DNA of 64,000 nt from an uncultured archaeon (GCA_964430885.1 CAYSHM010000013.1:18283-82282); one strand, 5' to 3'. Shown: positions 5,743 through 46,089, counted from the first letter of the stretch. Program-made: numbers and translations. Notes: generated from the letters alone by a model not told the origin.

Positions 5743-5798
5743 TTGGACAGCCTCAAGGAAATGATTGATCTATAAATATAAACTAAAAAGGTGAAAAA

Positions 5799-6494: not shown

Positions 6495-6641
6495 TCAGTC
6501 CCCTGGTTTATTACAAGTCCGCCTGCGGGTTCTGCACCTGCCTGATTATTTCCATAGCCCACGGGTATTTCCAACAGTTCCTGGGAGTTTCGAAAGTCGA
6601 TTTTAATGCTGATGATGAATTATTGAAAGGGGTAGTAACAA

Positions 6642-7352: not shown

Positions 7353-7525
7353 ATCCGGATGTTATTACAGCCACGATTCTCGAATTCGAACTCTTATTTA
7401 GCTTTCATATGAGAAACAAAGCTCAATTTATCCCTTATCAATTATTACCAATACCTATTTAATCAATCTTGAATTATAGTCGAAGAAGTTAGACCGCCGT
7501 ATGGCGCGATAGAGGATTGTAATAG

Positions 7526-14907: not shown

Positions 14908-14985
14908 TCATCAAATATTCTGAATATAATAGATTGATCAGGTCTATTAATAGAATGGATAACACATAAAGGTTGGATTGGTAAA

Positions 14986-15432
14986 ATGGCACATTCACTG
15001 GATTCGGCAATGATTTACATACACCCGCCCTTGGCCATTATCGGCTATGTTCTTATCCTTCTGAGCACAGTTTTCATTGGCCGGGAACTTTTCCTAAAAA
15101 AGCAATTCAAAGCTACAAAGAAGATCCTCTATACATCCTGGATCATTAACCTTCTGGGTGTAGTTACCGGTGCAATATGGGCACAGTGGGCCTGGGGTTC
15201 ATACTGGTCCTGGGATCCCAAGGAGACGGTGTCTCTCATTATGTTCGTGTTTGTGGTAATAGGACTCCTTTTTTACGAAAACCCCATCTTCAATATCAAA
15301 TGCGACGGAAGCTGCCCGGTACAGAACCATCGGAAACATATCTCGTTTGGACTCCATATAGCTGCAATCATAACGATATTTATCAACATATGGATAACCC
15401 TTGGGAATTTCGGTCTGCATTCATACGGCTGA
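14986..15432 (+). CDS. Minimal WWD-domain haem-handling protein (CcsA/CcmC family-like)
   Basis: 148 aa, 4 TMs. Tryptophan-rich loop [16 protein letters not shown] matches the WGxxWxWDPKE signature of CcsA/ResC/CcmC. Flanking His residues (IHPPLA; [11 protein letters not shown]). Confidence 0.65.
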
Positions 15433-19115: not shown

Positions 19116-21335
19116 ATGAGGAAACTGACATCGAGAGCGCTGGCTGTTGCCGCAGGACATATCACTCAGAACCGAAAAAAGTACATCATATTCGTTATTT
19201 TCTTAACTGTCGCACTGATATATCCCCTTAGGTCCATCGAGTTCAATTCAGATATGGATTCCTTTGCACCAGGGAAACCCGAGTTAAAGGCCAGGGATTA
19301 TATTGAAAGCAATTTTCGGACCCAGAGAAATATCATATGTATTGCTTTGCCTGCCGAAGGTGCGATAAATGACACGGACTTCTTACAGGATATTTGGGAT
19401 GCTGAGCAATCTTTAAGAGCAGAGCTGGACGGCGTGTTCGTCTTTTCATTGGCTGATTACCTGATGGGATCATTGGGGGCTATGAATATTTCACTGGAGA
19501 ATGCCCCAGGATACACAGTGGACCTTTTGATCAACGCGGCTTCCCGGGATCAGAACGTATCCGGCACATTCAACCAGGACTGTTTAATGATATTGGTCAG
19601 TATTATTAATTCCTCCGCCGATGAAGAGGATATGGGGATGGAGATCAGGGATCTGATGCGCGATACTGATGATACCCGATTTTTCGTTCTGGCAGGTTTC
19701 AATCACGATCTCAATGAAGGCGCAGTAAGGAGTTTATATCTATTTCCCATCACCCTTGTTCTTATTGCGGGAATACTATTTCTAAGCATAAGACGTTTGT
19801 TCGGAGTGGTCCTCACACTCTTGGCCATTCCCATTGTACTTGTCTGGACCTCCGGTATCTCGGCGCTCCTGGGATTGGAGTTCACAATATTCGCGTCTGC
19901 AGTTCCATTTATTGTTCTGGCACTGGGTATCGATTACGCCATACATTCAATGAACCGTTTCTCCAATGAGAGGGATGAGGGAAAGACAGGAATGCAGTCT
20001 GCCAGGAGAACTATAAAACATCTTGGAGTGGCTCTTCTTCTATCCTCCATCACAACTGTAGCCGCCTATCTGTCCAATGCCGCCTCGTCCATACCTGCAG
20101 TGGTTGACTTCGGCATAATGGTGGCCATAGGTATCACATGTTCATTCTTCGTCATGGGCCTTTTTCTTCCCATGGTGAGCTCCTTTTTTGTCAAGAAGGG
20201 CCGGAAAAAGAAAAAACGAGACCCATTCAGAGCGGTATGGAGGAGGTTCAGTATTATAATGGCCCGCTTCTTCTCCATGAAAAGAAATGCAGTGCTGGTG
20301 ATAGCCGGCGCATTGATCCTTACAGCGGTCTGGAGTTTCGGGGCCTTGAACCTTGAACGCACCTTTGAACCGGGTGAGGTCCTTCCAGAGGATTCCCCCT
20401 GGCTTGAGGCGGAGGAAATGCTGACCAAATACTTTCCCCAGAAAGCAGATCCGTACCAGGTGCTGATCCGCGGAGATATCACGTCCCGTGAGGTCCTTTC
20501 AGCCATTCAGAACGTCACCTTGGTCAACAGTGCGGAGGATTCCCCAATCTATCGTATTGGTAATTGGTCAGACCTGGATGAAGAGGGGATCAAAAATATG
20601 TTCGATGGATTGTTCGAAAATGATCCGACCATTGGTCAGGTTCTCCACCGATCCGGTAATGAATACGATGCGGCGGTGATACGGATTCGGGCCGAGGACA
20701 GGGGAAGCATTGACCTCTCTGCCCTTGAGGGGATGGATGATGCGGACCATATTCTGACGGGACAAAAAATTACCTATGACATAATAATCTCTGAGATATC
20801 AAACTCAATGCTCACATCATTGGTAATTTCAATTATCGTATGCGCAATAGTTGTTTCCCTTGTATTTCAGTCGCCCAGAATAGGGATCATTACCCTCTTG
20901 CCGGTGAGTATTATGACCGTTTGGCTCCTCGGCACAATGAATTTCATTGATTTCTCACTTAACATTGTTTCCATCATTATTGTTGTTACCGCAATAGGCG
21001 TGGGTATAGACTATTCCATCCACATAACCAACAGCTTTATCACCCAAAGGGACCTGGGAAAAGAAAGAGAAAAGGCTTTATCCTATTCACTTCAAACAAG
21101 CGGTTTGTCTTTGGTAGGTGCAGCTCTTACCACATCACTGGGATTCTTTATTCTGGTGTTCTCACCCATGAGAGGGTTCAACGCTTTCGGTGTCCTGACA
21201 CCTATAATGATCCTCTTCAGTTTATTGGGGGCAATCATAATCTTACCGGCCATGCTGATGCTGTCGGACCGCCTGCCCTATCTGAAGGATGTTCACAATA
21301 GTAAAATAAATAAGAATGGTAAAAATAAGAAATAG
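19116..21335 (+). CDS. MMPL/RND-superfamily exporter (SSD membrane domains)
   Basis: 739 aa with two 6-TM blocks separated by a soluble domain. Typical MMPL architecture with GxDYAIH-like motifs (LALGIDYAIHSMN; AIGVGIDYSIHITN). Confidence 0.8.
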   Translation: MRKLTSRALAVAAGHITQNRKKYIIFVIFLTVALIYPLRSIEFNSDMDSFAPGKPELKARDYIESNFRTQRNIICIALPAEGAINDTDFLQDIWDAEQSLRAELDGVFVFSLADYLMGSLGAMNISLENAPGYTVDLLINAASRDQNVSGTFNQDCLMILVSIINSSADEEDMGMEIRDLMRDTDDTRFFVLAGFNHDLNEGAVRSLYLFPITLVLIAGILFLSIRRLFGVVLTLLAIPIVLVWTSGISALLGLEFTIFASAVPFIVLALGIDYAIHSMNRFSNERDEGKTGMQSARRTIKHLGVALLLSSITTVAAYLSNAASSIPAVVDFGIMVAIGITCSFFVMGLFLPMVSSFFVKKGRKKKKRDPFRAVWRRFSIIMARFFSMKRNAVLVIAGALILTAVWSFGALNLERTFEPGEVLPEDSPWLEAEEMLTKYFPQKADPYQVLIRGDITSREVLSAIQNVTLVNSAEDSPIYRIGNWSDLDEEGIKNMFDGLFENDPTIGQVLHRSGNEYDAAVIRIRAEDRGSIDLSALEGMDDADHILTGQKITYDIIISEISNSMLTSLVISIIVCAIVVSLVFQSPRIGIITLLPVSIMTVWLLGTMNFIDFSLNIVSIIIVVTAIGVGIDYSIHITNSFITQRDLGKEREKALSYSLQTSGLSLVGAALTTSLGFFILVFSPMRGFNAFGVLTPIMILFSLLGAIIILPAMLMLSDRLPYLKDVHNSKINKNGKNKK

Positions 21336-21341
21336 ATTCCA

Positions 21342-22388
21342 TCATTTTTTCAATGCGGCCCCGCAGCCTTTACAGTGATATTCGGTGCTCTCAACTGAAG
21401 CTTTGCAAACCGGGCATTCAATTCTATCCCCTTCAGCTCTGCTGCCACTTTTCCCTTCTCCTCCGGGTACTGCGATTATTTTCGGAATTCCATCCTCATT
21501 TTCCTCAACATGCACCTTCCACAGTTCACCCCGACTGTATATTAGCGGCAGCAGTTCAGGCGGTAGGTTCAGGGTGCCGTCCATGTTGATGAACACCTCA
21601 CGGTCCTCATGAAGCTCGGTAAGGTCCATATCAACACCGTGCTGGCCGATGAACCTTCCGTCTGAGAGTTCCAGCGACCTGTCGGTGAATGAAGCGATAT
21701 GTTTGGAATGGGTGACCAAAAGGCATGCGGTGTTCAGCTTCTCCCTCAGGCCAGATACTATCTCCATGACCTTTTCAGCATTCTTGTAGTCAAGACTGCC
21801 GGTGGGCTCGTCCATGAGAAGCACTGCGGGATTATTGGCTAGTGCCCTGGCGATGGCCACTCTCTGTCTTTCACCTCCGCTTAGATGACTTGGAAGCGCT
21901 TTCATACGGTCGCTCATACCCAGAAGCTCCATAAGCTCTATTGCCCTCTTCTTTGCTTCCTTTCGTTTCATATTTGAAAAGAGAAGCGTCTGAACTACAT
22001 TTGCCAGGGCGGTTATTGTAGGGATCAGATTTCCCTCCTGGAACACATATCCTACCATCCTCCTTCGGAAATCCGCCCTATCCTTCTCAGGTACTTTTAG
22101 AATATCGTTCCCGTTGTAGTAAACCTCCCCTGCAGAGGGTTCCTGCAGTCCTCCCAGAATACGAAGCAATGTGGACTTCCCAGCTCCTGAGGGTCCGACC
22201 ACCGAAACCAGTTCACCCCGTTTGAGATCAAGACTGAGCCCTCTGAGGGCCACCACATTTGCCGCACCTTCCTTTCCCTTATAAAGGCTGTATATGTTCT
22301 TGGCTTCAAGGACCAGATCTTTTTCTTCAACTTCTTTATTATTTCCGCCCTTTTTGCATTTCCTTTTTGATTTACGCTCGCCTGCCAT
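21342..22388 (-). CDS. ABC transporter ATP-binding protein with C-terminal ~115-aa extension ending in a zinc ribbon
   Basis: Walker A GPSGAGKST, signature LSGGERQRVAIARAL, Walker B LLMDEPT. Tail CPVCK..x13..CKGCG. Start abuts stop of upstream permease (22388/22389). Confidence 0.9.
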   Translation of the reverse strand: MAGERKSKRKCKKGGNNKEVEEKDLVLEAKNIYSLYKGKEGAANVVALRGLSLDLKRGELVSVVGPSGAGKSTLLRILGGLQEPSAGEVYYNGNDILKVPEKDRADFRRRMVGYVFQEGNLIPTITALANVVQTLLFSNMKRKEAKKRAIELMELLGMSDRMKALPSHLSGGERQRVAIARALANNPAVLLMDEPTGSLDYKNAEKVMEIVSGLREKLNTACLLVTHSKHIASFTDRSLELSDGRFIGQHGVDMDLTELHEDREVFINMDGTLNLPPELLPLIYSRGELWKVHVEENEDGIPKIIAVPGGEGKSGSRAEGDRIECPVCKASVESTEYHCKGCGAALKK

Positions 22389-25300
22389 TTAGATCACCCT
22401 CGTTGAAACTGATAGGTCCTGACGCGCTGCGCTTATCGCGCTGAGAGCCACTGCCAGAAGCATGCCTATGAAAGTAGCTGCACCGATCAATATAAGCTGC
22501 AGCCACGGTATGAACACAAGTCTGTCCAGAACTCCTCTTCCCAGAAGTTCACCGATAATATTGAAGAAACCGTTCATGAGGTAGCTGAGACCTATTCCAA
22601 TGGTTATGCCCAGTATCACTGATATCATCATTAGAACTGAGTTTTCGCTAATAGCTATCTTATAGACCTGCCCTCTTGAAGCTCCTATTGTCTGGAGGAC
22701 CGCAAACTCCCGCTGCCGCTTCTTCATTATTATGGAGGAGAACGTGAAGGATATGGTCAGTGCGGCTATCAGAGAAGCGATGAACATCATTGTCAACAGA
22801 CCGGGTATGCCCCAGTTGTTCTTGTTCCCGATATCGTTGATCTCCTTTTGAAGATCGGCCACATTTGTTACGCCCTCCACAACCTCAAGTCTGTCCCCTG
22901 TCTTTGATATGGAGCGCCCTTTGGAAGCTCCCACCAGGTATTTGGTAGATCCAATATCAGCCTCCGGATTATCAATGGTTATGTTGTAGCGAAGGGGCAG
23001 GGTCGAGTCATCAAGAGTAATACTTCCGGTATAGAAACCGGATCCTCCTCCTCCTTCCGAACCTGAAACGCCTGATCCGCCAACGGAACCGTCGTTCAGT
23101 ATAACTTCGCCGTTCTTATTGCCATGGGACCAGACGGCTTTCACAATCCCGTATCTCAAACTCTCACCCAGACTGACATTGAAGTTATAAGCACTTCCTG
23201 CCTCAGCTGCCGGAGGGCTCAGATCGAGTATATGGTTGGGGGCCCAAATATTCCCTACATCCACCCTCTGAAGACCGCTGGAATTGGTGTTGTTATAATA
23301 ATCGGTCAGATAGATCCTGTAAGTGAGGTCTGATGTGCTCATTCCGGGTTCCGTCCATCCCATCCAACCTTCCTGGGCCGGAAACAGGGAAATATTGCCT
23401 CCTTCTTCCCCATGGCTCCAGTTGACACGCACTGATGTGATTCCAGAGCTGGGATCAGCAGTTATGTTGAATACAAAAGGCATCCCCGCCATGGCGCTAT
23501 TTAGGCTGTGGTCCGTGAATACCCTGCCGGGATCAATATTGGCCTGCATCACCTGGACCTCTCCAGGGACACTTAGGTCATGGTCCCTCATGAGCTGCCG
23601 TATAGAGAGAACCAAGGAATGGTCAGCTATCACCGCTTCTTTGCCGATGGCTCCCGGAACATGGTCGAACCTGCCAAGAACTGCCGCCTCCAATCTCTCC
23701 GTGGTGATATTTCCTGTCACAGGGTCCAATCTGGCAGCTTTTATGGTAAGTTTATCTCCACTCCTGGCACCTATGTCCGACGCAAAGGACCTGCCCAGAT
23801 AGATACCGGGAAGTGAATCATCCCGAGCCAGCCTGTCAAGGGCGCTTTCTGCGCTTTCACCCTTGAATGAGTTCTCATGCCACTTTGCAAAACCAGCATT
23901 CTCGGCATCGATTCCGTAAAGGGTAACAGAGGCGCTGTAAATCTCAACTGTGACAGAAGGCAGGGGCATTGCCCTGTCCACACCATCTACTTCTAATAAT
24001 TGTCCTGTATGATCAGTGCTGTTGGAGAATGTCAGCTGAAAATCAGCTCCTATCTGGTACTCCAGTTCCCTGACGCTGAACCGCTCATCGGAATACCCCT
24101 GTATCACCGAAAGGGAAGCAATGGATAGTGTAAGTGCGATTATGAAAACAAGTTTTGCAACCTCTCCCCTTCTTTTCAGACCGCTCTTGATAATTGGTCC
24201 TATATCTCTGAACGTCTTTACTTTCAGCATTACCTTCTCAAGTTTCAGGGCCGCCCATTTTGCGATCACCGGGGCCGAGAAAGCTCCGCCCACCCATAGT
24301 GCGATGGTTCCCAGGAATACGAATAAAAAGGTGTCCCAACCGCTTCCAAGACTGAGTTTGTAACCCGCTATTTCATCTATATCGAAGGCCCTGTCAAGTA
24401 TTACCTTCGCTGCGGATATCACTCCGAAAATCAACAGAATGATGTCGATGTTATGACGTCTGAGGAATCCTTTCTTATTCCATTTCAGCGTCTGCACTGC
24501 TTCACTCACCTGCAGATCTATGAAGGATCTTCCCCTTTTCCTAATGGATATAATGGTTATAAGACCGATTGCCAGTAAGGATATGATAAACGCAGTCATG
24601 TCGAACAAGAGAAAATCACCCAGATATTCAAAGGAGAAATTGAAGTTCATAAAACCAACCGCAGAGCTAATCACCCAGGCGCCGATTACTGCCAAAAGAT
24701 AACCCAGTACCAGCCCCAGGAACAGAAGGAGAAAGGATTCCGTCAGGACCTGTCCGAAAATCTGTTTTCCGTCAGCCCCCTGAACCTTCAGGATACCTAT
24801 CTCCTTCCTTCTCTCCTCAAGGGAAAGCTCCAGACCGTATATCAGAAGGTAGATGGTGAGGACCACAACAGGAACGATGAGAACAACGTCTATGATTATG
24901 ATGGCATAGCGTATGAAACTGGATATTCCCAGTATGAAACCCACATTGTTGCTTCCTCTGAGGTCTTCCCCGCTATCCCTGGTAATGTCGTTAACAAGTC
25001 TATCGATCTGCCCGCTCATGGTCTCGAGATTTCCTGTGCTGAACTCGTCCTTGTCGATCTTTACAGCCAGGGTGAACAATCCGTATTCCTGAAATTTGCT
25101 CATTAGCGTGGAGTTCGTCCCCAGCATTCCGGTTCCGAACATTATGGTCTCGGCACTCATTTCATCGTCCCAGGAAGCCTCCTCCATCTCGTATATACCG
25201 GCAATGGTAACATTCTGGAATCTGTATTCGGTTGTCTCGAAGTCTATGTAGGACAGAAGGGTGATGTTGATCCCTGGAACCACATTTCCCACATCCAGGT

Positions 25301-26108
25301 TCATTCGAAGGGCCATTGACCGGGGGATGACGGTCCTATTCTCTCTACCGGTAAGATCGAAACTTCCCTCTAAACGGTCACCCACAAGCTTATCGTAAAT
25401 CGTGGTGCTCGCAAACTTATCATCTACAAATGAGGGATTGACCACCCCGTCTTCCTCTTCCCATTTTTCAAGTGTCTGTTCAAGTGTATCTCCGTCGACT
25501 CTGGTGATAAGCCGGAAATCAGGGTCTTCCCATAATGTGCTTCCTCCTCCTTTAGTGTAATATCCGTTCCCGCCTGGAACGCCTCCTGTGAAAACCACCG
25601 CAGACTCGACTCTCGGATCATTATTCACCCGAATTGCATATTCTTCAAGCAGGGTTACATTTCCCTCTTCCTCCAGACTGAAGGTCACTTCATAGGGTAT
25701 TCCCCTGACCATGGAATCGTACATCTCATTCTGAAGTACATTGGTATAGATGAATATAGACGAGATGATAAGGGTTCCCAATATAATACCGCTGAGCATG
25801 GCCAAGGTCCTTCTGGGGTTCCTGAAGATGCGGATAATTGCATCCAGAAGGGAGTGAAAGGGTTCCAGAAGGGAACTTCCGGTTACAGGCATCATATTTT
25901 TTCTTCTTCTAGCCTCCACGGAGAGTGCTTTTGCCCTTACATGATTCACGATACCTATTATCAGGAAAACCGCGGCCAATATTGCAGCGATTGAGACAAA
26001 GCATGTGGCCAAACAGAAAGCCGAGGAGAGATAGATGAACAGAACAATGGCCAGGATGAACAGCAGGATGCTGCCGAAGATAGCAGACGACGCTTTCATG
26101 ATATTCAC
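22389..26108 (-). CDS. ABC transporter permease with two FtsX modules and two large ectodomains (tandem MacB/BceB-like), 1239 aa
   Basis: Two FtsX signatures (RRKEIGILKVQGADGKQI; KRQREFAVLQTIGASRGQV), each followed by 3 TMs. ~270-aa and ~380-aa extracytoplasmic inserts. 4-nt overlap with upstream ATPase. Confidence 0.85.
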   Translation of the reverse strand: MNIMKASSAIFGSILLFILAIVLFIYLSSAFCLATCFVSIAAILAAVFLIIGIVNHVRAKALSVEARRRKNMMPVTGSSLLEPFHSLLDAIIRIFRNPRRTLAMLSGIILGTLIISSIFIYTNVLQNEMYDSMVRGIPYEVTFSLEEEGNVTLLEEYAIRVNNDPRVESAVVFTGGVPGGNGYYTKGGGSTLWEDPDFRLITRVDGDTLEQTLEKWEEEDGVVNPSFVDDKFASTTIYDKLVGDRLEGSFDLTGRENRTVIPRSMALRMNLDVGNVVPGINITLLSYIDFETTEYRFQNVTIAGIYEMEEASWDDEMSAETIMFGTGMLGTNSTLMSKFQEYGLFTLAVKIDKDEFSTGNLETMSGQIDRLVNDITRDSGEDLRGSNNVGFILGISSFIRYAIIIIDVVLIVPVVVLTIYLLIYGLELSLEERRKEIGILKVQGADGKQIFGQVLTESFLLLFLGLVLGYLLAVIGAWVISSAVGFMNFNFSFEYLGDFLLFDMTAFIISLLAIGLITIISIRKRGRSFIDLQVSEAVQTLKWNKKGFLRRHNIDIILLIFGVISAAKVILDRAFDIDEIAGYKLSLGSGWDTFLFVFLGTIALWVGGAFSAPVIAKWAALKLEKVMLKVKTFRDIGPIIKSGLKRRGEVAKLVFIIALTLSIASLSVIQGYSDERFSVRELEYQIGADFQLTFSNSTDHTGQLLEVDGVDRAMPLPSVTVEIYSASVTLYGIDAENAGFAKWHENSFKGESAESALDRLARDDSLPGIYLGRSFASDIGARSGDKLTIKAARLDPVTGNITTERLEAAVLGRFDHVPGAIGKEAVIADHSLVLSIRQLMRDHDLSVPGEVQVMQANIDPGRVFTDHSLNSAMAGMPFVFNITADPSSGITSVRVNWSHGEEGGNISLFPAQEGWMGWTEPGMSTSDLTYRIYLTDYYNNTNSSGLQRVDVGNIWAPNHILDLSPPAAEAGSAYNFNVSLGESLRYGIVKAVWSHGNKNGEVILNDGSVGGSGVSGSEGGGGSGFYTGSITLDDSTLPLRYNITIDNPEADIGSTKYLVGASKGRSISKTGDRLEVVEGVTNVADLQKEINDIGNKNNWGIPGLLTMMFIASLIAALTISFTFSSIIMKKRQREFAVLQTIGASRGQVYKIAISENSVLMMISVILGITIGIGLSYLMNGFFNIIGELLGRGVLDRLVFIPWLQLILIGAATFIGMLLAVALSAISAARQDLSVSTRVI

Positions 26109-26821
26109 ACCTCCCCGTCCACGGATTCTCTGAGCTTTCCATTCCTTAGAATATATATCCTTTGGGATGCCTTGGCAAGGTTCACATCATGGGTGACCAT
26201 CAATACCGCTTTACCCTGGGAAGCCAGGTTCTTGAACAGCTCGATTATCTCCAATCCAGACTGGGTGTCAAGGTTTCCTGTTGGTTCATCAGCGACTATC
26301 AGGGGCGGGTCGTTCATGATGGCCCTTGCAACACAGAATCTTTGCTGCTGGCCCCCGGAGAGGCCGTCGGGAAAATGGTCTATCCTGTCTGAAAGTCCCA
26401 GCCGGTTGATTATTTTCATGGCCTTAACACGTACCTCATTGCCGGTTTCCCCCAGAAGATTGGATGGTATCATTACATTTTCCAGTGCGGTCAGGTTGGA
26501 TATCAAGTTGAAATCCTGAAAGATCCAGCCCACATCGTGCCGTCTTACCTCGGTGAGCTGTTTATGCTGCATTCGGCTGATATCCTTGCCGTTCACCTCC
26601 ACGATGCCGCTCGAGGGAGGAATCAACCCGCCGATTATGTTCAGCATTGTAGATTTCCCGCATCCCGAAGGGCCCATGAGAGTTATGAACTCTCCCATTT
26701 TGACCGCAAGGTCGATGCCTTTCAGGACACGGTTCTTTCCGCCTCCGGGTATGGAGAAATACTTTTTCAGGTTCCTGCATCTGACAAGGACCTTCTTTTT
26801 CTTTGCAGTCGACATTTCCAT
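26105..26821 (-). CDS. ABC transporter ATP-binding protein (MacB/LolD-like)
   Basis: [40 protein letters not shown] overlap with permease. Confidence 0.9.
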   Translation of the reverse strand: MEMSTAKKKKVLVRCRNLKKYFSIPGGGKNRVLKGIDLAVKMGEFITLMGPSGCGKSTMLNIIGGLIPPSSGIVEVNGKDISRMQHKQLTEVRRHDVGWIFQDFNLISNLTALENVMIPSNLLGETGNEVRVKAMKIINRLGLSDRIDHFPDGLSGGQQQRFCVARAIMNDPPLIVADEPTGNLDTQSGLEIIELFKNLASQGKAVLMVTHDVNLAKASQRIYILRNGKLRESVDGEV

Positions 26822-26898
26822 CCACCAAAATAATTTTGTTGATAGCTCTAATATTCATAAGAACCAAGGTAATGATCAATAGTAACGGAGTTGCGCCC

Positions 26899-27417
26899 TC
26901 ATTTTTTCTTTTCCCGTCTGTAAAGTACAATACCCACAATTAGGAGTACAGCACCCACAAGGAATAATCCGCATGACATACAGCACCCACCGCACAGCTC
27001 CATGAAGCTGTCCTCTATTCCCAGGGGCTCGGTGATGTATATAACAGTACTGTCCGAGGAGGTGATATTGTATAGGCCAGTGTCCGGGATTGTGATCTCA
27101 CCATATTTGACGTATTGTTCCTTCCCCAGTGTCACATCCGTTTCGGTAAACTTTATCGGGATGGTCTTGTTGTACTCTTGATCCTTCACGGTGATATCGA
27201 GATAATCGGGATCCATATATGTCTCATCAGAATCCACCCAAATCTCATATTTTCCCTCTCTTAGGATCTCAACAGACGGTGGTTCAACAGTATATTCCGC
27301 TTCTTCGCTAGGATCCTGAAGTAGGGGAGGTCCTTTGATCACAGCCCAGATTCCACCGCCAACAAGTGCTATGACAAGTATGATTATACTGAATACGATT
27401 AGCAGCTTCTTGCTCAT
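26899..27417 (-). CDS. Bitopic membrane protein, paralog of 27676..28611 (unknown family)
   Basis: N-terminal TM, ~120-aa extracytoplasmic domain, Cys cluster CGGCCMSCG at C-terminal TM. Shares PLL.DPS.EAE, EIW, YVKYGE.TI.D.G.Y.I.S..T.IYIT.PL and LC.GC motifs with the 311-aa neighbour. Confidence 0.6.
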   Translation of the reverse strand: MSKKLLIVFSIIILVIALVGGGIWAVIKGPPLLQDPSEEAEYTVEPPSVEILREGKYEIWVDSDETYMDPDYLDITVKDQEYNKTIPIKFTETDVTLGKEQYVKYGEITIPDTGLYNITSSDSTVIYITEPLGIEDSFMELCGGCCMSCGLFLVGAVLLIVGIVLYRREKKK

Positions 27418-27446
27418 TTACGTTCACCTTTTTTCAATATCATGAA

Positions 27447-27689
27447 TTAAGCAGATTTACCATTTTTGCCCTTGAAAATGAACACTTCTTCAATGGTGGT
27501 GCCAAATATCTCGGCGATATCATGCGCCAGCTGAAGAGATGGATTGTATTTACCCTTTTCCAGATAGAGAATAGTCTCCCTCCTGACACCCGCCTTGATG
27601 GCCAGCTCCTCCTGTGTGAGGTTGAATCTGGCCCTGAACTCCTTGATGCGCGTATCCATGGTATCCATCCCCCTGTTAGCTCCGATCAC
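27447..27689 (-). CDS. XRE-family helix-turn-helix transcriptional regulator (80 aa)
   Basis: [40 protein letters not shown] is a classic Cro/CI-type HTH. Likely true start at internal Met (MDTRIKEF). Overlaps upstream gene end. Confidence 0.8.
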
Positions 27690-28611
27690 CCCATCGGTTG
27701 TAATAAAGCCAACATAGACCCAATATCACCAGGATCACAAAAATTCTCCAACCCGACCAGTAGAAAAGCCTAAAGAAAGGTACAAAGACAACTAGGGAAA
27801 CCAGGATCTCTACGAATATGTAGATAATAAGGGCCGCCGTAGCACTCTTTCTGAAAACATCCCTGGACCGTTCGTCCCGATAGGGAATTCCCTTGGAGAT
27901 GTCCCTGAAGGAGTTTCTGGCCTTCAATATCCTGAATAGCATGATGCCAAAACCAATGGAGATTAAACCTATTCCCCAGTAAATATCTCCGTCATTTTCA
28001 CCCATTAGGGCTATTGCTAGTCCCAATAATAGAATTGGCAGTCCAATGAACGATACAATTATCATTTCCGCCCATAGCTGAAAACGATCTCTCCCTCTCT
28101 TTTTCTTTCCTTCTTTGAGCTTTTTAGACACGCCGGCGTAGATGAGGACGAGACCAATTATTCCCAAGAATAGAGAAATACCGCATCCGTTGCAGAGGGT
28201 TACGAAGTTATGCTCAACCTCCAGAGGCTGCGTGATGTATATGGTGATGTTCTCTGAGGCCAGGATATGATATGCACCACCATCTTTAATGGTCGTCTCC
28301 CCGTACTTGACATATTCATCATCGGCGAGTTTAACCTTGTCATTTTCATTCTTATAGATATTCGCTGAGGCGTTTTTACTGTCAAGAAGTGTTATTTCCA
28401 CCTCTTCAAAATCACCGTAATCGTTCTCCAACCATATTTCCCACTCACCTGTCTTCAGGGTGGCGTTATCGCCATGGGAAAGGGTGTGCTCAGCTTCCTT
28501 GGAAGGGTCCACAAGAAGCGGGGTGCCAAAAAAATACAGAAGGGAACCGCACCCTATTATGGAAAATAGTATTGTGGAAATCCCAGTTATTATCAAGGCC
28601 CGGCCTTTCAT
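27676..28611 (-). CDS. Membrane protein paralog with extra C-terminal 4-TM domain
   Basis: Same N-TM/ectodomain/LCNGCG/TM module as 26899..27417, followed by a ~130-aa polytopic domain. Confidence 0.6.
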
Positions 28612-28647
28612 CTGTATACACCTGGAGTTAAATATTCATATTCGTAA

Positions 28648-30807
28648 CTATTTTTCATCGAACAATCCCATCAGGGCAGTACCTGAGATCTTGGTGACGT
28701 ATACCATGCGCCCGGTCTCCACGTCTATTGCTACTGAGAACATGTCGCCCTGCTCCCAGGCGCTTCCTTTCCAGAATATCCATCCGAATCTTGCCGAGGG
28801 CACCACGATACCGGTTATCTGCTGAAGTACCTGGGCCGCCGGAAGCTGGGATGATTCAACTCCTCTGGCTATAGTGATGCTTGAGTCTGATAGGTCTAAA
28901 TCGCCGTTACGGTCAAAGAGCTCATCTCCTGCCATCTCATCTCCTGAGACTATGTCAACAGCCCCTGAAAGGGTAATGCCTTCGTCATCCATCTCCGATC
29001 TTTTCATCCTGGCCCATCCTTCAAGCTTTCCGTAGTCCTTGTCTATCTCGTACACCGAGGAGTAGGGATTCAGGGGATTTATTGACTTGGTAATGTTCTT
29101 TGCCATCCTGGCGGAGTATATGTGTTCAGGCCATTGGAAATCCTCCACTTCGTCCTTATCCTTTCCTTCGTTCTCCTTCTGCCATTCCCCGTAATCCTCA
29201 TAATATGGCTCAAGTTCCTTCTCACTCATGTAATCCGAAAGAGTGATGTTCCAGTAATGGCTGCCTGCGGTTTTCTGCGGGTCCAAGGCGGATAAAGTTG
29301 CATTGTAGGTTGCTTTTGTCACAAAAGAGGTCGGGAATTGCCTTGCAAAATCACCCATGGCTGAACTGTTTTCTACCATGTATTCTAGGGCAGTATCCGG
29401 TGCTATCTGAATGGACTGATCCGGATTTGTAGCTTCATCTAGATCGGCATTTTCGAACATGTAACCGCCTTTTGGTATCATATCCCAATCCTCGTATTCA
29501 CCCTGAGGATGCCGCTCAAGGAATTCTCCAACAGAATTCTCCCAGGATATGGGGCTTGAACCTCTGCTGTAGCCGCTTGTAAGTACCCTGTCCTGTTCAA
29601 TTATGATCCAACCGGTATGGTTCTCGCTGTCCCAGCTTGTATTGGTACGGAGGAATGTCCTGGTGGGATACGGTGTCTTGCTTGAAAGCCATATTGTCTG
29701 GGTATAATCAAGAAAACCCCAGTATTTTCTTGTAATGTTCACTCTGAGAGAAGGTATGCCCTCGACATTTTCCATATCTTCAGCGGACCAGTTGTAGAAA
29801 CCCTGGTCGAGAGCTCCATCATAATTTCCCTGGTAATATACACTGCCGTTGTCTCCCACGGACAGGGCCCGGTCCTTGTAGATCTGGTCTTCTAGAGTAG
29901 GCAGGGTCTCTTCCTCGGGATCTGAATAGGTTCGGACATAACCTTCGTATTCAATTGGAACGGGCACAGTAGCTCTCGGAAGCTGGTCAACAGACATTGT
30001 CCCGCTGTTAACTGCCTTGATCTGTATTCCTCCGGCCAGTTCGGTGTATTCCGAGCGGTCGGCACTGAATGATCCGTCAACCGTGACCTTGCCGGAATCG
30101 GTGGTATCAACAATCACAGTTAGAGCTCCGTCCGCCACCATCCTCTCCTGTACACAGCTGTGGATCTTTCCATATCCCGACTCTGCATTCACCGGTCCGT
30201 AGACCTTGAAATCCCACTGACCGTCGCCGGTTATGGTGTACCTCTCATATTCTCCGCTGCTCTTGTTCTCGGAATAGAGCTCTGCAAAAACCGTGAAATC
30301 ATACCGGTAGTCATCACCTATGTGAAGAGGGGGTTGACGCACGGATAATTCTTCATCTCCGGTATTGTTAATGGGTAGAAGAATGGATGTAAGGGTCAGC
30401 TTGACGGTTGTCCCGGATATTTCAGTGATAAGTACCTGTATGTCGTATATGTCGTCCTTATCAGTATCCACATATTCGGGGATGTCCAGAGTAGCAGTAA
30501 CCTCTACGGGATCGGACTCAATAATTAGAGTTACCTCATCGCCTTCTATATCGGTTATGGTAACCGAATGAGTAACCGCGCCTACGACCATTTCCTCGGT
30601 CTCGCCCAGTTTAATTCCCTCGGAGGTGGAATCCCCCTGCTGGATGGGATCATTATCTCCCGGCCCAGGACCTGGTTTATCGTCATCGTCGTCATCTTGA
30701 AGTTCCCCGTCCTTTTCCCAGACGTTTTCAAATAGGCCGAAATAGACGACGTTGACCAATAGGCTAGCTATACAGATGATGATGATTAGTGTCTTTATCT
30801 TGCTCAT
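28648..30807 (-). CDS. Secreted/N-terminally anchored 719-aa protein, tandem paralog B (unknown function)
   Basis: N-terminal hydrophobic anchor, poly-Asp/Gly-Pro acidic linker. ~75% identical to the 721-aa upstream neighbour along its full length. No recognisable catalytic motif. Confidence 0.7.
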   Translation of the reverse strand: MSKIKTLIIIICIASLLVNVVYFGLFENVWEKDGELQDDDDDDKPGPGPGDNDPIQQGDSTSEGIKLGETEEMVVGAVTHSVTITDIEGDEVTLIIESDPVEVTATLDIPEYVDTDKDDIYDIQVLITEISGTTVKLTLTSILLPINNTGDEELSVRQPPLHIGDDYRYDFTVFAELYSENKSSGEYERYTITGDGQWDFKVYGPVNAESGYGKIHSCVQERMVADGALTVIVDTTDSGKVTVDGSFSADRSEYTELAGGIQIKAVNSGTMSVDQLPRATVPVPIEYEGYVRTYSDPEEETLPTLEDQIYKDRALSVGDNGSVYYQGNYDGALDQGFYNWSAEDMENVEGIPSLRVNITRKYWGFLDYTQTIWLSSKTPYPTRTFLRTNTSWDSENHTGWIIIEQDRVLTSGYSRGSSPISWENSVGEFLERHPQGEYEDWDMIPKGGYMFENADLDEATNPDQSIQIAPDTALEYMVENSSAMGDFARQFPTSFVTKATYNATLSALDPQKTAGSHYWNITLSDYMSEKELEPYYEDYGEWQKENEGKDKDEVEDFQWPEHIYSARMAKNITKSINPLNPYSSVYEIDKDYGKLEGWARMKRSEMDDEGITLSGAVDIVSGDEMAGDELFDRNGDLDLSDSSITIARGVESSQLPAAQVLQQITGIVVPSARFGWIFWKGSAWEQGDMFSVAIDVETGRMVYVTKISGTALMGLFDEK

Positions 30808-30871
30808 GAGAAAACCCTATTCCTTTCCGATTTTATACTGAATACAATTTTTTAATGTATCTATCTGGTAA

Positions 30872-33037
30872 TTATTCGTCGAACATACCCATAAGAGCAG
30901 TTCCGGATATTTTTGTTATATACACCATGCGCCCTGTCTCAACATCTACCGCCGCCGAGAACATATCGCCCTGTTCCCAGGCGCTGCCTTTCCAGAATAT
31001 CCATCCGTAATTGGCAGACGGCATAACAATACCCGTAATCTGCTGAAGGACCTGAGCAGCGGGAAGCTGAGATGATGTTGCTCCTTTTGCGACCACAATA
31101 CCCAGATCGTTCATGTCCAGATCACCGCTTCTGTCAAAGAGTTCGGTACTAGCCATATCATCACCCGCAACAATATCCACCGCACCTGAGAGTGTGCATC
31201 CTTCATCATCCAACTCGGAGCGTTTGATCCAGGACCAGCCTTCTTCACGGGTATAATCCTTGTCTATCTCTATCTCAGCAGAGTAAGGATCAAGAGGATT
31301 GATGGATTTGGTGATGTTCTTGGCCACCCTTGCAGCATAGAGATGCTCGGGCCAATGAAACCGTTCTTCTTCCGGAATGTCCTCCCACTCCTCTCCCTCA
31401 TGCTCTTCTTCCCATTCTTCATAATCTTCGAATATGGGCTCCAATTCGTCCCAGCTCATATAATCTGCAAGTGTTATATTCCAGTAATGGCTTCCTGCAT
31501 TGTTCTGAGGGTCCAGATTTGAAAGGTTGGCCCAATAAGTTGCTTCCGTTACCAGGGTATTGGAGAACTCATCGGTGAATTCACCCATGCCGGTACTGTT
31601 CCTAATCATAAAATCCAAGGCATCTTCCGGCGACATATGCACTGCAAACTCAGTGTTTATTGGATCTTCCAATTCAGTATTATCGAATTTATAGCCTCCC
31701 TTTGGTATCTTATCCCACTTGAGGAATTCACCATCGGGATGTGTATCTTGGAAGGTAGCTTCAGTATCTTCCCAGGGTATTGGGTCAGATCCCCTGCTGT
31801 AACCGCTTGTCAGGGTTCGGTCCTGTTCTATTATTATCCAGCCCTTTTCATTTTCCTCATCCCAGGTAGTGTTGGTTCGCAGAAAAGTTCTGGTAGGGTA
31901 GGGTGTCTTGCTAGATATCCATACCGTCTGGATAAAATCCAGAAATCCCCAGTACTGACGGGTGATGTTGATCTTCAGGGACGGGATTCCCGCAATATTT
32001 TCCATTTGCTCAGCTGTCCAGTTATAATATCCCTGGGAGACCGCTTCCTCGTAAGGACCCTCGTAGTATACACTTCCCTCATCTCCCACCGTAATATCCT
32101 TGTCCTCATATATCTGATCCTCAAGGGTTGGCTGGACCTCTTCAGTGGGATCGGGATATGTTCGGACATAACCTTCATACTGTATAGGTACAGGAACTGT
32201 AGCTCTGGGAAGCTGGTCGATGGCCATCTCACCCTGGTTCACGGCCTTTATTAAAGTCCGGCTTTTCAGTTCAGAATATTCCGATCTGTCCGCACTGAAG
32301 GAACCGTCAACAGAGACCTTGCCGGTATCGGGTGTGTCCACTACAACAGTGAGGGCCCCGTCAGCGACCATCCTTTCCTGTACACAGCTGTGGATCTCTC
32401 CATAACCCGACTCTGCATCCACCGGGCCGTATACCTTGAAATCCCACTGTCCGTTGCCGGTGATGGTGTAGCGTTCGTATTCACCGCTTGTCTTATTCTC
32501 TGCATAAAGCTCGGCGAAAACAGAGAAATCGTATCTGAAATCATCTCCCATATGAAGTGACGGTTGACGTACCGATATAACTTCGTTCCCCGTATTGTTG
32601 ATGGGAACTAGGATGGATGTCAGCGTCAATTTCACCGTTGTTCCGGAAATATCTGTTACAAGTACCTGTATATCATAAATTTCATCTTTATCGGTGTCCA
32701 CGTACTCCGGGATATCCAAAGTGGCAGTAACCTCCACTGGGTCGGATTCAATTATAAGGGTGACCGTATCACCATCTATACCGGTTACGGTAACCGAATG
32801 GGTCACGGCACCAACCACCATTTCCTCCGTCTCACCCACTTTGATGCCTTCTGAGGTGGACTCTCCCTGCTGGATCGGATCGTTATTGCTAGGCCCTGAA
32901 CCCGGTTTCTCATCATCATCATCATTATTCAGCTCTTCTTCCTTTTCCCACACGTTATCAAAGATACCGAAATAGACGACGTTGATTAGAAGACTAGCGA
33001 TACAGATTATTATTAGCAAAGTTTTGATCTTGCTCAT
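30872..33037 (-). CDS. Secreted/N-terminally anchored 721-aa protein, tandem paralog A
   Basis: Same architecture as 28648..30807. Begins MSKIKTL(L/I)IIICIASLL.NVVYFG in both. Confidence 0.7.
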   Translation of the reverse strand: MSKIKTLLIIICIASLLINVVYFGIFDNVWEKEEELNNDDDDEKPGSGPSNNDPIQQGESTSEGIKVGETEEMVVGAVTHSVTVTGIDGDTVTLIIESDPVEVTATLDIPEYVDTDKDEIYDIQVLVTDISGTTVKLTLTSILVPINNTGNEVISVRQPSLHMGDDFRYDFSVFAELYAENKTSGEYERYTITGNGQWDFKVYGPVDAESGYGEIHSCVQERMVADGALTVVVDTPDTGKVSVDGSFSADRSEYSELKSRTLIKAVNQGEMAIDQLPRATVPVPIQYEGYVRTYPDPTEEVQPTLEDQIYEDKDITVGDEGSVYYEGPYEEAVSQGYYNWTAEQMENIAGIPSLKINITRQYWGFLDFIQTVWISSKTPYPTRTFLRTNTTWDEENEKGWIIIEQDRTLTSGYSRGSDPIPWEDTEATFQDTHPDGEFLKWDKIPKGGYKFDNTELEDPINTEFAVHMSPEDALDFMIRNSTGMGEFTDEFSNTLVTEATYWANLSNLDPQNNAGSHYWNITLADYMSWDELEPIFEDYEEWEEEHEGEEWEDIPEEERFHWPEHLYAARVAKNITKSINPLDPYSAEIEIDKDYTREEGWSWIKRSELDDEGCTLSGAVDIVAGDDMASTELFDRSGDLDMNDLGIVVAKGATSSQLPAAQVLQQITGIVMPSANYGWIFWKGSAWEQGDMFSAAVDVETGRMVYITKISGTALMGMFDE

Positions 33038-33180
33038 TGAATTTTCCCCTTCGGATTGATGGCTGTAAATTTAGGTTTTTCCAATTGTGAGGTATCTCTA
33101 ATATAATATTAGAAATATATAACATTGGGAATATATAAAGGAGTTGTACCTGATTATCCAATGCGATAAATATATCTCAG
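33038..33180 (-). promoter_or_regulatory. AT-rich putative promoter region of the secreted-paralog/ABC operon
   Basis: On the minus strand contains tttatatatt and ttatatattt TATA-like boxes within 100 nt of the paralog A start. It is the only sizeable non-coding gap heading the 8-gene co-directional block. Confidence 0.3.
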
Positions 33181-33396
33181 CTACCAAATGATCCCTATAG
33201 CCGCCAAGATCCCGAGAACAATAATGACTGCCCCCAAGACCGTATAAAATCGATGCACATTTTTTCCCCAAAGCTTTTTAGACCTGTAGATCAACAATTT
33301 ATAGACAATAAAATCGGTTTCTAAAAGGCTGCATACTAGCATGAACAGCCCGATAGCAGATATCAAAATTCCCCAAAGCGGATCCATATTTATCAC
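33181..33396 (-). CDS. Small 2-TM membrane protein (71 aa)
   Basis: Two hydrophobic helices separated by YKLLIYRSKKLWGKN. No homology recognised. Confidence 0.4.
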   Translation of the reverse strand: MINMDPLWGILISAIGLFMLVCSLLETDFIVYKLLIYRSKKLWGKNVHRFYTVLGAVIIVLGILAAIGIIW

Positions 33397-33406
33397 ATCT
33401 TCAAAA

Positions 33407-33730
33407 TCATTTCTTCCTCTTCATTCTGACAGCGGTCCCGAAGGCTATAAGCTCAGCCGCACCAGGCTTGGTTTGGGCTGTTGTGTACCGCATCCCGATA
33501 ACTGCATTGGCTTTCAATTTTTTCGCCTGTCTGAGCATTCGCTCCATTGAGGTCCGGCGTGCCTCCTCCATCATTTCAGTGTAACCCTTAGCTTCGCCGC
33601 CTACCAAGGATCGCAATCCTGCTCCTATGTCCTTACCTAAATGCTTTGTCTGGACGCAGCTTCCGAAGACCACGCCCAGCACATCCGTGACCTTGTGGCC
33701 AGGTACACTTTCAGTTGTTGTCACTAACAT
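33407..33730 (-). CDS. YbjQ/UPF0145 (DUF74) family protein
   Basis: 107 aa. ESVPGHKVTDVLGVVFG...LRSLVGGE...AVIGMRY matches the conserved YbjQ core. Confidence 0.8.
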   Translation of the reverse strand: MLVTTTESVPGHKVTDVLGVVFGSCVQTKHLGKDIGAGLRSLVGGEAKGYTEMMEEARRTSMERMLRQAKKLKANAVIGMRYTTAQTKPGAAELIAFGTAVRMKRKK

Positions 33731-39223: not shown

Positions 39224-39274
39224 TTTATTCCACTCCTCTTTCTCCTTGCATTGATATGTTTTCAGGATTTTTCA

Positions 39275-39955
39275 CTACTGTGCCGACGCCCTGCCGTCAA
39301 GAATGGTTATTTTTCTATCCGCCTTGGCTGCCAGTTCTCTGCTGTGGGTGACGTAGATAATGGTCTTACCTCTCTTGTTCAGTCTCTTGAACAGCTTGAA
39401 CATCTCGCTCTCGGTCTTTGAATCAAGATTGCCGGTAGGTTCGTCGCCGATTATGATCCACGGATCGTTGGCAAGAGATCGGGCGATGGCAACTCTCTGC
39501 TGTTCTCCTCCGGATAGTTCAGAGGGCAGATTGTCTAGTTTGTCCCCTAGGCCCACAAGCTCCAGGTTCTTTTTGGCCGTATCCCTTCTCTCCTTCAGGC
39601 TCCCTCGGCCTGCAAAATCCATGGGGAGTATGGCGTTCTCCAGGGCAGTTAGGGTGGGGAAAAGCTGGAAGAACTGAAATACTATCCCCACGTTCTTTCC
39701 TCTCCACTTGGCCAGCTCGTCCTCCTTCATCCTGTCGATCCTCTGCCCTCCAACGGTGATGGTCCCTTCGGTGGGCCGATCGATGCCGGTGATCATGTTC
39801 AGAAGGGTGGATTTTCCGCTGCCAGATGGCCCGACTATTGCCGTTAGTTCTCCCTTTTTTATGGTAAGGTCTATCTCCTTCAAGGCCTGAAATTCCATCT
39901 TTCCTGTGGTGTAGGTCTTTGACAGGCTGTTCAGTTGTATCTCTCTCATTTTCAT
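39275..39955 (-). CDS. ABC transporter ATP-binding protein
   Basis: [36 protein letters not shown]. Confidence 0.9.
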
Positions 39956-45212: not shown

Positions 45213-45414
45213 TTCAATCCCGTTTTTACAATACTATAAATTGCATTTACTGCAATTGCATATGCTGCTATACTATCACTAATTGATCTGGATTTATTTT
45301 TAACTGATGCCTGCAATTTAAAATTATTTGGGAAATATTTTTATGTGCTCATTTTGAATGGCCTTAAGTGTAAGGTAAACCTTAAATTTATTCAATTTCC
45401 GATCATATGCACGG

Positions 45415-46080: not shown

Positions 46081-46089
46081 ACAAAAGTT

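Follow-up and report, generated by a model that had tools for sequence, protein, structure and literature searches.

Results and discussion

Layout of the gene block

The 64,000-nucleotide (nt) stretch of DNA analysed here (hereafter the window, to which all positions refer unless a contig is named) comes from an uncultured archaeon and carries, at positions 21342-33037, a block of eight co-directional genes on the minus strand (Table 1). From the head of the block downwards, these genes encode two paralogous proteins of 721 and 719 amino acids (aa), a 311-aa membrane protein, a small helix-turn-helix (HTH) protein of the XRE type, a 172-aa membrane protein, and the three components of an ATP-binding cassette (ABC) transporter, i.e. 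a large permease flanked by two different ATPase subunits (nucleotide-binding domains, NBDs; here NBD-B and NBD-A). Comparison with related loci suggests that the block, which lies in a marine Thermoplasmatota genome within a region of variable surface proteins, is probably a lineage-specific, co-directional juxtaposition of three modules with separate inheritance. The only deeply conserved module among them is the ABC triad at 21342-26821, a predicted three-gene ABC machine of type VII (MacB fold).

All eight open reading frames (ORFs) of a first-pass annotation of the window were found again exactly at the coordinates given there, and so were the short gaps between them, which from the head of the block amount to 64, 36, -14 (or +7), 29, 77, -4 (or +5) and 0 nt. 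A motif resembling a Shine-Dalgarno sequence (GGAGG/GGTG-like) lies ahead of every one of the genes. The AT-rich head gap with TATA-like boxes described in the same annotation was likewise recovered; it holds the stretches CTTTATATATT, GTTATATATTT and TATTATATTAGAG, 75-105 nt ahead of the ATG of the 721-aa gene. Intergenic runs of at least five T on the coding strand occur only once in the block, after the last gene, NBD-A.

Two start sites probably differ from those first assigned. The permease more likely begins at ATG 26099, which is also the start in the database gene call and has GGAGGTG 8 nt upstream; the gap between NBD-B and the permease is then 5 nt, as in the relative L065 (see below). 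Thus, of the two ABC junctions annotated as overlaps of 4 nt and 0 nt, the second stands and the first is probably a 5-nt gap. Similarly, alignment to an 81%-identical orthologue makes ATG 27668 or ATG 27659 the more likely start of the XRE HTH gene.

Table 1. Genes and candidate signals of the block in window coordinates, in order from the head of the block.
Feature	Position	Strand	Size	Remarks
Head gap	33038-33180	-		AT-rich, 30% G+C vs about 47% around; candidate archaeal promoter, as read from the sequence
721-aa protein	30872-33037	-	721 aa	predicted membrane-anchored surface protein of the F720 family, five segments
719-aa protein	28648-30807	-	719 aa	tandem paralogue of the 721-aa protein
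311-aa protein	27676-28611	-	311 aa	transmembrane (TM) helix, ectodomain of about 110 aa, TM helix, plus C-terminal 4-TM DUF2178
XRE HTH	27447-27689	-	80 aa	70-73 aa from ATG 27668 or 27659
172-aa protein	26899-27417	-	172 aa	TM helix, beta-rich ectodomain, TM helix, short basic tail; slot directly upstream of NBD-B
NBD-B	26105-26821	-	238 aa	
Permease	22389-26108	-	1239 aa	1236 aa from ATG 26099
NBD-A	21342-22388	-	348 aa	
Candidate archaeal terminator	21321-21325	-		T run 17 nt past the NBD-A stop

Structure of the permease

The permease had been described as a 1239-aa protein with two FtsX modules, each with a large ectodomain of its own, and this description was borne out by domain, topology and structure searches alike. 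It matches FtsX of Pfam (E = 7.1e-24) in two stretches, residues 410-522 and about 1103-1229, and a hydropathy scan gave about 12 TM segments, with a first ectodomain at about residues 127-387 and a second at about 674-1098. The MacB_PCD domain is weak in the window permease (E = 0.05); PF12704 is recorded for the relatives P0024, P0036 and P0039-41. The search for permease relatives returned about 27 close clusters, and the protein occurs in forms of 1200-1236 aa and of about 962 aa in Thermoplasmatota and of 963-996 aa in Heimdallarchaeota. Because the relatives of about 962 aa possess neither the first two helices nor some 200 aa of ectodomain 2, the core of the family is a 10-TM protein, to which the permease of the window adds an N-terminal hairpin of two TM helices.

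Searched against the Protein Data Bank (PDB), the profile of the permease family matched LolE (5e-8) and LolC (9e-7), as well as YtrF, an HrtB-like protein, LolF and MacB, with a marginal match to YbbP (E = 0.07). An AlphaFold2 (AF2) model of residues 68-1239 (pLDDT 74.4, pTM 0.65) found its best Foldseek match in Escherichia coli YbbP (9ge7_A; E = 5.7e-14), full length and over 1198 alignment columns, followed by BceB in second place and then by LolE/C, MacB and YtrF; the top 20 matches are all type VII permeases. The periplasmic domain of LolE (5udf) was matched at 6e-6, and the clade-specific insert of about 200 aa in ectodomain 2 matches tandem domains like those of immunoglobulins (Ig) and FN3. 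The protein thus combines the features of type VII permeases, i.e. FtsX-type 4-TM units with a large extracytoplasmic domain between the first two helices of a unit, with those of the YbbAP type, i.e. a single-polypeptide 10-TM core with two ectodomains, the hairpin being extra in the window. Sequence profiles and the predicted structure agree in presenting it as a fused double-FtsX permease of the MacB fold, type VII, with YbbP-like topology.

Two ATPase subunits and a zinc-ribbon tail

Both ATPase genes match ABC_tran of Pfam (NBD-A, 1.3e-37; NBD-B, 1.1e-34). NBD-B, which matches the FtsE, MacB and LolD models of NCBIfam at about 1e-61, is a predicted short ABC ATPase of the MacB/LolD/FtsE type with canonical motifs. 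For the genes of the block, NCBIfam is in accord with the Pfam assignments. The two subunits of the window are 37% identical to each other. Across the contexts described below, the long (A-type) NBDs are 52-86% identical among themselves and the short (B-type) ones 54-88%, whereas A- and B-type NBDs share 34-45%; Walker A, Q-loop, LSGG, Walker B-Glu and H-loop are intact in all 15 NBDs (eight A-type, seven B-type). By these patterns NBD-A and NBD-B form two old orthologous groups, both with the marks of canonical catalysis.

NBD-A carries a C-terminal extension of about 105 aa, with the motifs DGRFIGQHG...DGTLNLPPE...GELW and, at the very terminus, a zinc ribbon of the form CPxC...CxxCG (CPVC...CKGCG at residues about 325-345, window 21354-21416). 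This tail had been taken for unique to the one subunit; however, the zinc-ribbon motif is found in eight of eight A-type NBDs (and in none of seven B-type ones), and the tail can be aligned across all six long NBDs compared, those of Heimdallarchaeota included. Weak zinc-ribbon matches in Pfam were obtained for six of six tails of the NBD-A type, and zinc ribbons are the only Pfam matches of the NBD-A tail. The predicted zinc-ribbon tail is a hallmark of the A-type family rather than a peculiarity of this genome. A likeness of the tail to AbrB/SpoVT, seen by eye, found no support: hhalign gave 0.1% against a small AbrB/MazE alignment built partly from approximate sequences, under an option that may not have been suitable.

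Since two old, separately kept and intact NBD lineages surround an asymmetric fused permease, it is natural to infer that the permease is served by an NBD-A/NBD-B heterodimer. The same had been deduced from the two distinct flanking NBD genes of the window, soundly so, as both the arrangement and the orthologous groups are conserved.

Conservation of the ABC triad

Contexts of the triad were retrieved from seven contigs (L012-L016, L065 and L066), all of them metagenome-assembled genomes (MAGs) or metagenome contigs. NBD-B, permease and NBD-A are complete in six (L012, L013, L014, L015, L016 and L065), and in L066, where NBD-B is cut by the contig end, the permease and NBD-A are kept. A short NBD of 230-254 aa ahead of the permease and a long one of 329-361 aa behind it occur in every context; the orthologues of NBD-B, 54-88% identical in six contigs, always lie upstream of the permease. 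Permease identity runs from 80% down to 38%, and the contexts range from close relatives to Heimdallarchaeota. The genes that flank the triad differ from contig to contig. The relatives are Thermoplasmatota MAGs, in keeping with the affiliation to Thermoplasmata that had been guessed for the window.

The closest relative found is L065, whose permease is about 80%, NBD-B 88% and NBD-A 84% identical to those of the window. Its gene order is a 152-aa gene, YbjQ, a 257-aa gene for a protein with PKD domain and TM helix (PKD/TM), NBD-B, permease and NBD-A. In blastn, positions 736-1062 of L065 correspond to window 33746-33419 (YbjQ) and positions 1965-7306 to window 26804-21463. Between these two blocks, the 6.6 kb of the window at 26805-33418, which hold a small TM ORF, the 721-, 719- and 311-aa genes, the HTH gene and the 172-aa gene, correspond to 0.9 kb in L065 with a single unrelated PKD gene. 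As the blastn blocks flank it on both sides, the difference at 26805-33418 is an indel. A conserved order of the eight genes, on which the first-pass annotation had itself staked its reading, is therefore absent in the nearest relative, where all five genes upstream of the triad are missing. Flanking direct repeats or signatures of mobile elements were not found around the 6.6-kb cassette, in which the only repeats are those of the paralogues.

Two further contigs display peculiarities of their own. L015 encodes, at 4909-8004, a 1031-aa protein that starts with a signal or TM helix, continues with CARDB/PKD repeats in an ectodomain of about 700 aa and ends, after a further TM helix, in a B-type NBD. 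An NBD tethered via a membrane helix to an extracellular domain is an unusual architecture. The ectodomain fused to this NBD-B is not a homologue of the 719/721-aa proteins, for which hmmsearch returned nothing and hhalign 0.6%. In L014, a tandem DNA repeat with a period of 153 nt (2.5 copies, 91% matches) lies directly behind the long NBD gene, at 6403-6792, and had been called as a 138-aa ORF.

Comparison with known type VII systems

In the structure of YbbAP-TesA, YbbP has 10 TM helices, with the Porter and Sabre domains between TM1-2 and TM7-8, and binds two copies of YbbA (PMC12646458). Within the MacB family, permeases occur as homodimers, as the LolC/E heterodimer, or fused, with one or two ectodomains; systems with fused permease units always have a separate NBD gene, and a pair of different NBD genes is mentioned for none of the systems (PMC5985334). 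Common to the type VII systems is mechanotransmission, in which the work is done outside the membrane and no transmembrane channel for the substrate exists (PMC12646458, PMC5985334).

The triad resembles YbbAP (PDB 9GE7) in its single-polypeptide permease with two FtsX/MacB 4-TM units and two linker helices, in its separate NBDs, in the position of the ectodomains between TM1-2 and TM7-8 and, presumably, in a mechanotransmission that by analogy would extract hydrophobic compounds from the membrane. Unlike YbbAP, which uses two copies of the one ATPase YbbA, it has two distinct NBD genes, one of them with a zinc-ribbon tail; its clade, moreover, differs from YbbP by the N-terminal 2-TM hairpin, by the Ig-like insert of about 200 aa in ectodomain 2 and by the archaeal host. 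No TesA-like hydrolase domain was found by Pfam among the eight genes of the block.

With LolCDE the triad shares an asymmetric pair of permease units, LolE and LolC being the closest solved sequences to its permease halves, and NBDs that score best against the LolD, FtsE and MacB models. In LolCDE, however, LolC and LolE are separate genes and LolD is a homodimer, whereas here the permease units are fused and the NBDs differ, and the matches to the Lol models stay far below the curated cut-offs (LolD, 226 bits against 307.75; lolCE, 37 against 362). The partners of LolCDE, LolA and LolB, have no such gene here; to our knowledge, no outer membrane is expected in Thermoplasmatota. BceAB likewise combines a fused 10-TM double-FtsX permease with separate NBDs, but BceAB-RS has one large ectodomain, a BceA homodimer and the BceS/BceR pair, in contrast to the two ectodomains here and a block without kinase or response-regulator domains. 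Finally, MacAB-TolC has its NBD fused to the N-terminus of a 4-TM permease and works with MacA, unlike the separate NBD genes and fused double permease of the triad; a Pfam search of the block gave no HlyD/MacA-like domain. The earlier remark that the composition could not be matched to a described system such as Bce, Lol or MacAB fits these differences; the permease itself matches YbbP, a type VII permease, best.

The part of the block that deserves to be retained is its YbbP-like ABC system of type VII, conserved in archaea and equipped with two distinct ATPases and a zinc-ribbon tail. By analogy with YbbAP, LolCDE and MacB, one NBD would sit under each half of the pseudo-symmetric permease, and ATP binding and hydrolysis would move the Porter/Sabre-type ectodomains by mechanotransmission, a motion by which a substrate, either hydrophobic or associated with the surface, may be extracted or expelled from the membrane's outer face; the zinc-ribbon extension of NBD-A could serve as a regulatory or docking element. 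A conserved archaeal family that joins a fused asymmetric permease to two different competent ATPases would add a new permutation to the MacB family and would make it possible to test whether the two halves of a mechanotransmission motor can be driven or regulated separately. We know of no substrates assigned to type VII systems of archaea, which have neither outer membrane nor peptidoglycan. In the literature that could be searched, no description of archaeal or of heterodimeric FtsX-type systems was found, which is not proof that none exists.

The XRE HTH and DUF2178 pair

The XRE HTH protein matches HTH_3 of Pfam (3e-13). In the C-terminal part of the 311-aa protein, DUF2178 (PF09946) was detected at 25.8 bits (1.2e-5; cut-off 22.8), and at 28.6 bits against the same cut-off when the C-terminal 154 aa were searched in isolation. 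Orthologues of both lie next to each other in another locus, represented by L001 and L002, where the order is a 731-aa gene of the family of the 719/721-aa proteins (F720; 63% identical), a 141-aa DUF2178 gene and an HTH gene; genes for a 262-aa protein, an FG-GAP protein of 1377 aa and an ABC-2 type transporter come next, and the locus has no FtsX pump. The stand-alone 141-aa DUF2178 protein of L001 shares 31% identity with the C-terminal part of the 311-aa protein and has a precomputed PF09946 match, the family not being listed in our own scan at E <= 0.01. The HTH protein of L001 is 81% identical to that of the window, and its gene follows the DUF2178 gene after 18 nt.

Genes for HTH proteins of about 65 aa, 50-69% identical to the window HTH, were found on 304 plasmid records, mostly of Bacillota. 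The three records inspected all have a small gene on the same strand that adjoins the HTH gene from upstream or overlaps it; in one of them it is annotated as DUF3796. The YoaS(DUF2975)-YozG operon, with a putative autoregulatory operator, is reported to be conserved across phyla (bioRxiv 10.64898/2026.09.15.751765). The pair in the window is like YoaS-YozG and the DUF3796-HTH pairs of Bacillota in that a Cro/C1-type HTH gene of about 65-70 aa (65-75 aa being the range that we looked for) stands immediately downstream of, or overlaps, a small multi-TM gene, here the 311-aa gene with an overlap of 14 nt or a gap of 7 nt. It differs in the membrane partner, which is DUF2178 instead of DUF2975 or DUF3796 and has an additional N-terminal orphan ectodomain. 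From this arrangement the XRE HTH and the DUF2178 part can be recognized as a separate pair of a widespread predicted kind, a small membrane protein together with a repressor of about 65 aa. A literature search on DUF2178 yielded no papers.

Self-regulation of the transporter through the embedded HTH, as proposed in the first-pass annotation, finds no backing in these comparisons: nothing links the HTH to control of the pump, and in L001 the DUF2178-HTH pair occurs without an FtsX transporter. A palindrome ahead of the 311-aa gene, TGTATACA, was considered as an operator and discarded; there is a single copy in the window and none in L001, and 42 of 100 shuffled sequences did equally well.

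An ectodomain common to the 172-aa and 311-aa proteins

Residues 1-161 of the 311-aa protein have a 40%-identical counterpart in the 172-aa protein; this, like the 73% identity between the 719- and 721-aa proteins, upholds the paralogies first noticed in the window. Beyond this pair, each protein is a singleton cluster. A profile search with the ectodomain among 5.8 billion proteins recovered nothing but the 172-aa protein, and no relative was found in the PDB, so that the remote-homology searches suggested for these paralogues came back empty. Judged by these searches, the ectodomain is an orphan without homologues outside this genome. A relationship to p406, a membrane protein treated below, was rejected, since hhalign gave a probability below 15% and aligned TM segments only.

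The F720 family

The identity between the 719-aa and 721-aa proteins extends over their full length, and the corresponding DNA repeats D1-D3 are 71-81% identical. Proteins of this family, here called F720, begin with a TM helix, followed by an acidic Pro/Gly linker. Of the earlier label of tandem secreted paralogues, the tandem paralogy thus stands and free secretion does not, as the N-terminal TM anchor makes the proteins look membrane-anchored. The AF2 model of the 721-aa protein is divided into a TM helix (residues 1-26), the disordered acidic Pro/Gly linker, a beta-sandwich (about 56-142), a long-stranded, barrel-like beta domain (about 155-414) and an alpha/beta C-terminal region (about 470-712). 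Searches of Pfam, NCBIfam and PDB sequences with the 719- and 721-aa proteins gave nothing; together with Foldseek, the remote-homology check recommended for these proteins therefore ended without a significant match.

Close clusters of F720 number 14 among the 5.8 billion proteins, in Thermoplasmatota MAGs only. An exhaustive profile search gave 37 representative clusters below 1e-30 and added to the family about 35 representative clusters of proteins of about 600 aa, which comprise the core (profile positions about 135-698) without the N-terminal beta-sandwich and have no Pfam domain. A 45%-identical subfamily belongs to a conserved trio of a 137-149-aa TM protein, the protein of about 700 aa and a membrane protein of 400-500 aa, p406 (typically about 400 aa, with a weak match to DUF4064). 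The trio is sometimes tandem-duplicated, and an AbrB-like gene, a gene of about 790 aa and an MMPL gene are divergent from it. We mapped 23 F720 loci of at least 5 kb among 48 metagenome loci retrieved, in addition to L003-L007. Among these mapped loci, p406 is adjacent in about 15 and MMPL nearby in about eight, and none contains an FtsX permease, DUF2178 or the HTH.

The neighbourhood of small TM gene, F720 gene of 600-700 aa and p406 was observed in L003, L005, L006, L007, L017, L027, L035 and L053, all Thermoplasmatota-like; AbrB/MazE-like, ~790-aa and MMPL genes stand divergently beside the trio, which is tandem-duplicated in L005. The neighbourhood of p406, F720 and MMPL looks like a candidate system in its own right. 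Elsewhere in the window a p406 gene was sought and rejected: the sole, weak match of its hidden Markov model, at 14938-15429, is a cytochrome c assembly membrane protein.

Because the modelled beta domain goes together with the linkage to MMPL, a role of F720 in the handling of lipids or other hydrophobic ligands appears a reasonable lead. The central domain calls to mind LolA/LolB/RseB/LppX-type folds and porin-like barrels, to which it shows no sequence similarity in the PDB and no Foldseek match below 1e-3; moreover, F720 proteins differ from both by their N-terminal TM anchor and their additional N- and C-terminal domains. The likeness, as far as the model goes, may serve as a lead and not as a family assignment. 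In the exhaustive search, the N-terminal beta-sandwich of the 721-aa protein (residues about 56-142, with or without the linker) matches well over 1000 otherwise unrelated proteins, often close to the C-terminal end of a protease or of an Ig-repeat surface protein, and no Pfam model covers it; part of this signal may be compositional.

Origin of the block and alternative explanations

Domain content, conservation patterns and the indel in L065 together favour the juxtaposition of three separately inherited modules, which we consider a likely, though by no means certain, account of the block. Alongside the triad as its first module, a second (about 27447-28140) would be the HTH + DUF2178 pair, presumably an autoregulated membrane-linked switch, in which the orphan ectodomain has become fused to the membrane partner; the 172-aa protein downstream would be a free copy of that ectodomain. 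The third (28648-33037) would have arisen by tandem duplication of a Thermoplasmatota-specific, N-terminally anchored surface protein, whose wider family appears to be tied genomically to the membrane protein of about 400 aa and to MMPL/RND transporters, not to FtsX pumps. In these MAGs, the close packing of genes in one direction is thus no sign of a conserved system.

Several observations weigh against the modular account. L012, with a permease 60% identical to that of the window, has an F720 gene on the strand of the triad, some 10 kb upstream of it, and the F720 and triad modules are therefore neighbours in more than one lineage. The PKD/TM gene of L065 overlaps the start of NBD-B by 4 nt, and in L015 NBD-B is fused to the CARDB/PKD ectodomain plus TM helix. 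A single transcript for the eight genes, and some functional coupling in this genome, are possible given gaps of at most 77 nt, Shine-Dalgarno-like motifs and the lack of internal intergenic oligo-T runs. Confidence in the AF2 model of the 721-aa protein is modest (pLDDT 62.8), and no PDB structure matched it in Foldseek below 1e-3. Finally, the sample is small, with seven triad and about 30 F720 contexts from MAGs and metagenome contigs only.

Among the alternatives, the slot upstream of NBD-B could be occupied by a swappable membrane-tethered ectodomain subunit of the pump, represented by the 172-aa protein in the window, the PKD/TM protein in L065 and the fusion in L015, while the rest of the cassette (both F720 genes, the 311-aa gene and the HTH gene) would be unrelated. 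A TM-tethered ectodomain protein fills this slot in three of seven contexts (the window, L065 and, as a fusion, L015), and the fusion in L015 and the 4-nt overlap in L065 hint at such a subunit. The 172-aa protein suits the role by its C-terminal TM helix and short cytoplasmic tail and by its position 77 nt upstream of NBD-B, and TesA, EnvC and MacA offer analogies as partners of other type VII systems. However, the three ectodomains are not homologous to one another, L012, L013, L014 and L016 have no such upstream gene, and the 77-nt gap at 26822-26898 is AT-rich and could hold a promoter of the pump's own. We regard this explanation as unlikely, yet as one to be kept in mind.

A bolder proposal would make the triad an undescribed class of archaeal type VII motor, present in Thermoplasmatota and Heimdallarchaeota, with an obligate heterodimeric ATPase, the zinc ribbon as gate or dock, swappable upstream ectodomain partners (172-aa protein, PKD protein, L015 fusion) and the 720-aa barrel proteins as acceptors of hydrophobic cargo, in short an archaeal counterpart of LolCDE-LolA or YbbAP-TesA. 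Taken as a whole, we hold this to be speculative and decidedly unlikely.

It is more doubtful still that all eight genes form one integrated, self-regulating export or sensing system, as had first been suggested, in which the HTH controls the operon, the membrane paralogues sense and the 720-aa proteins are cargo or partners. The co-directional genes, short gaps, Shine-Dalgarno-like motifs, single promoter-like head gap and single terminal oligo-T run are compatible with it, as is the F720 gene in the triad neighbourhood of L012, and on one bacterial plasmid, genes for a membrane protein, an HTH protein, an ABC ATPase and an ABC-2 permease follow one another in this order. Nevertheless, the composition is absent from L065, L013-L016 and the preserved part of L066. 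L012 has only its distant F720 gene and no homologue of the HTH, DUF2178 or 172-aa proteins; its series of F720, 266-aa, FG-GAP and ABC-2 genes is that of L001 without the DUF2178-HTH pair and runs straight into the triad. In addition, F720 relatives occur without any FtsX permease in about 25 loci and the DUF2178-HTH pair without the triad in L001, and the ectodomain of the 172/311-aa proteins, being confined to one genome, cannot be a conserved component. The proposal of a single system thus fails when conservation is examined, and both F720 and the DUF2178-HTH pair have other contexts of their own.

Detoxification and sensing of the Bce kind, in which the pump would sense and remove a membrane-targeting antimicrobial and signal to the XRE HTH via the DUF2178 protein, we regard as highly improbable. 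In its favour, BceB is the second-best structural match to the permease, and genes for a membrane protein and a DNA-binding protein are adjacent. Against it, neither a histidine kinase nor a response regulator is encoded in the block, the permease has two ectodomains like YbbP in place of the single large one of BceB, and none of the other genomes examined links the HTH pair to the triad. An anti-phage defence system was rejected, as PADLOC gave generic ABC ATPase and HTH matches only.

Genes around the block

The block is followed by a convergent gene for a 739-aa transporter of the MMPL/RND family at 19116-21335 on the plus strand, with 6 nt between the two stop codons. Distant F720 relatives adjoin MMPL operons elsewhere; the MMPL gene of the window lies 11 kb from the 720-aa genes. 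On the other side, a 68-aa ORF with two hydrophobic segments and no Pfam match (33181-33387, minus strand) lies just upstream of the head gap and is preceded by a YbjQ_1 gene (33407-33730, minus strand; 8.6e-37), which is syntenic in L065 and L001.

A second fused double-FtsX permease, of 792 aa (FtsX, 5e-33; MacB_PCD, 1e-18), is encoded 4 kb upstream of the block, in 36845-39955 on the minus strand. It has one adjacent ATPase gene only (39275-39955; 226 aa, no tail), i.e. the conventional YbbAP-like arrangement, and this 226-aa NBD is 41-48% identical to B-type and 40-45% to A-type NBDs. Still further upstream, at 42690-49353 on the minus strand, lie genes for an 840-aa PKD-repeat protein and a 1087-aa PD40 beta-propeller protein, large surface-type genes that fit a region rich in variable surface proteins.

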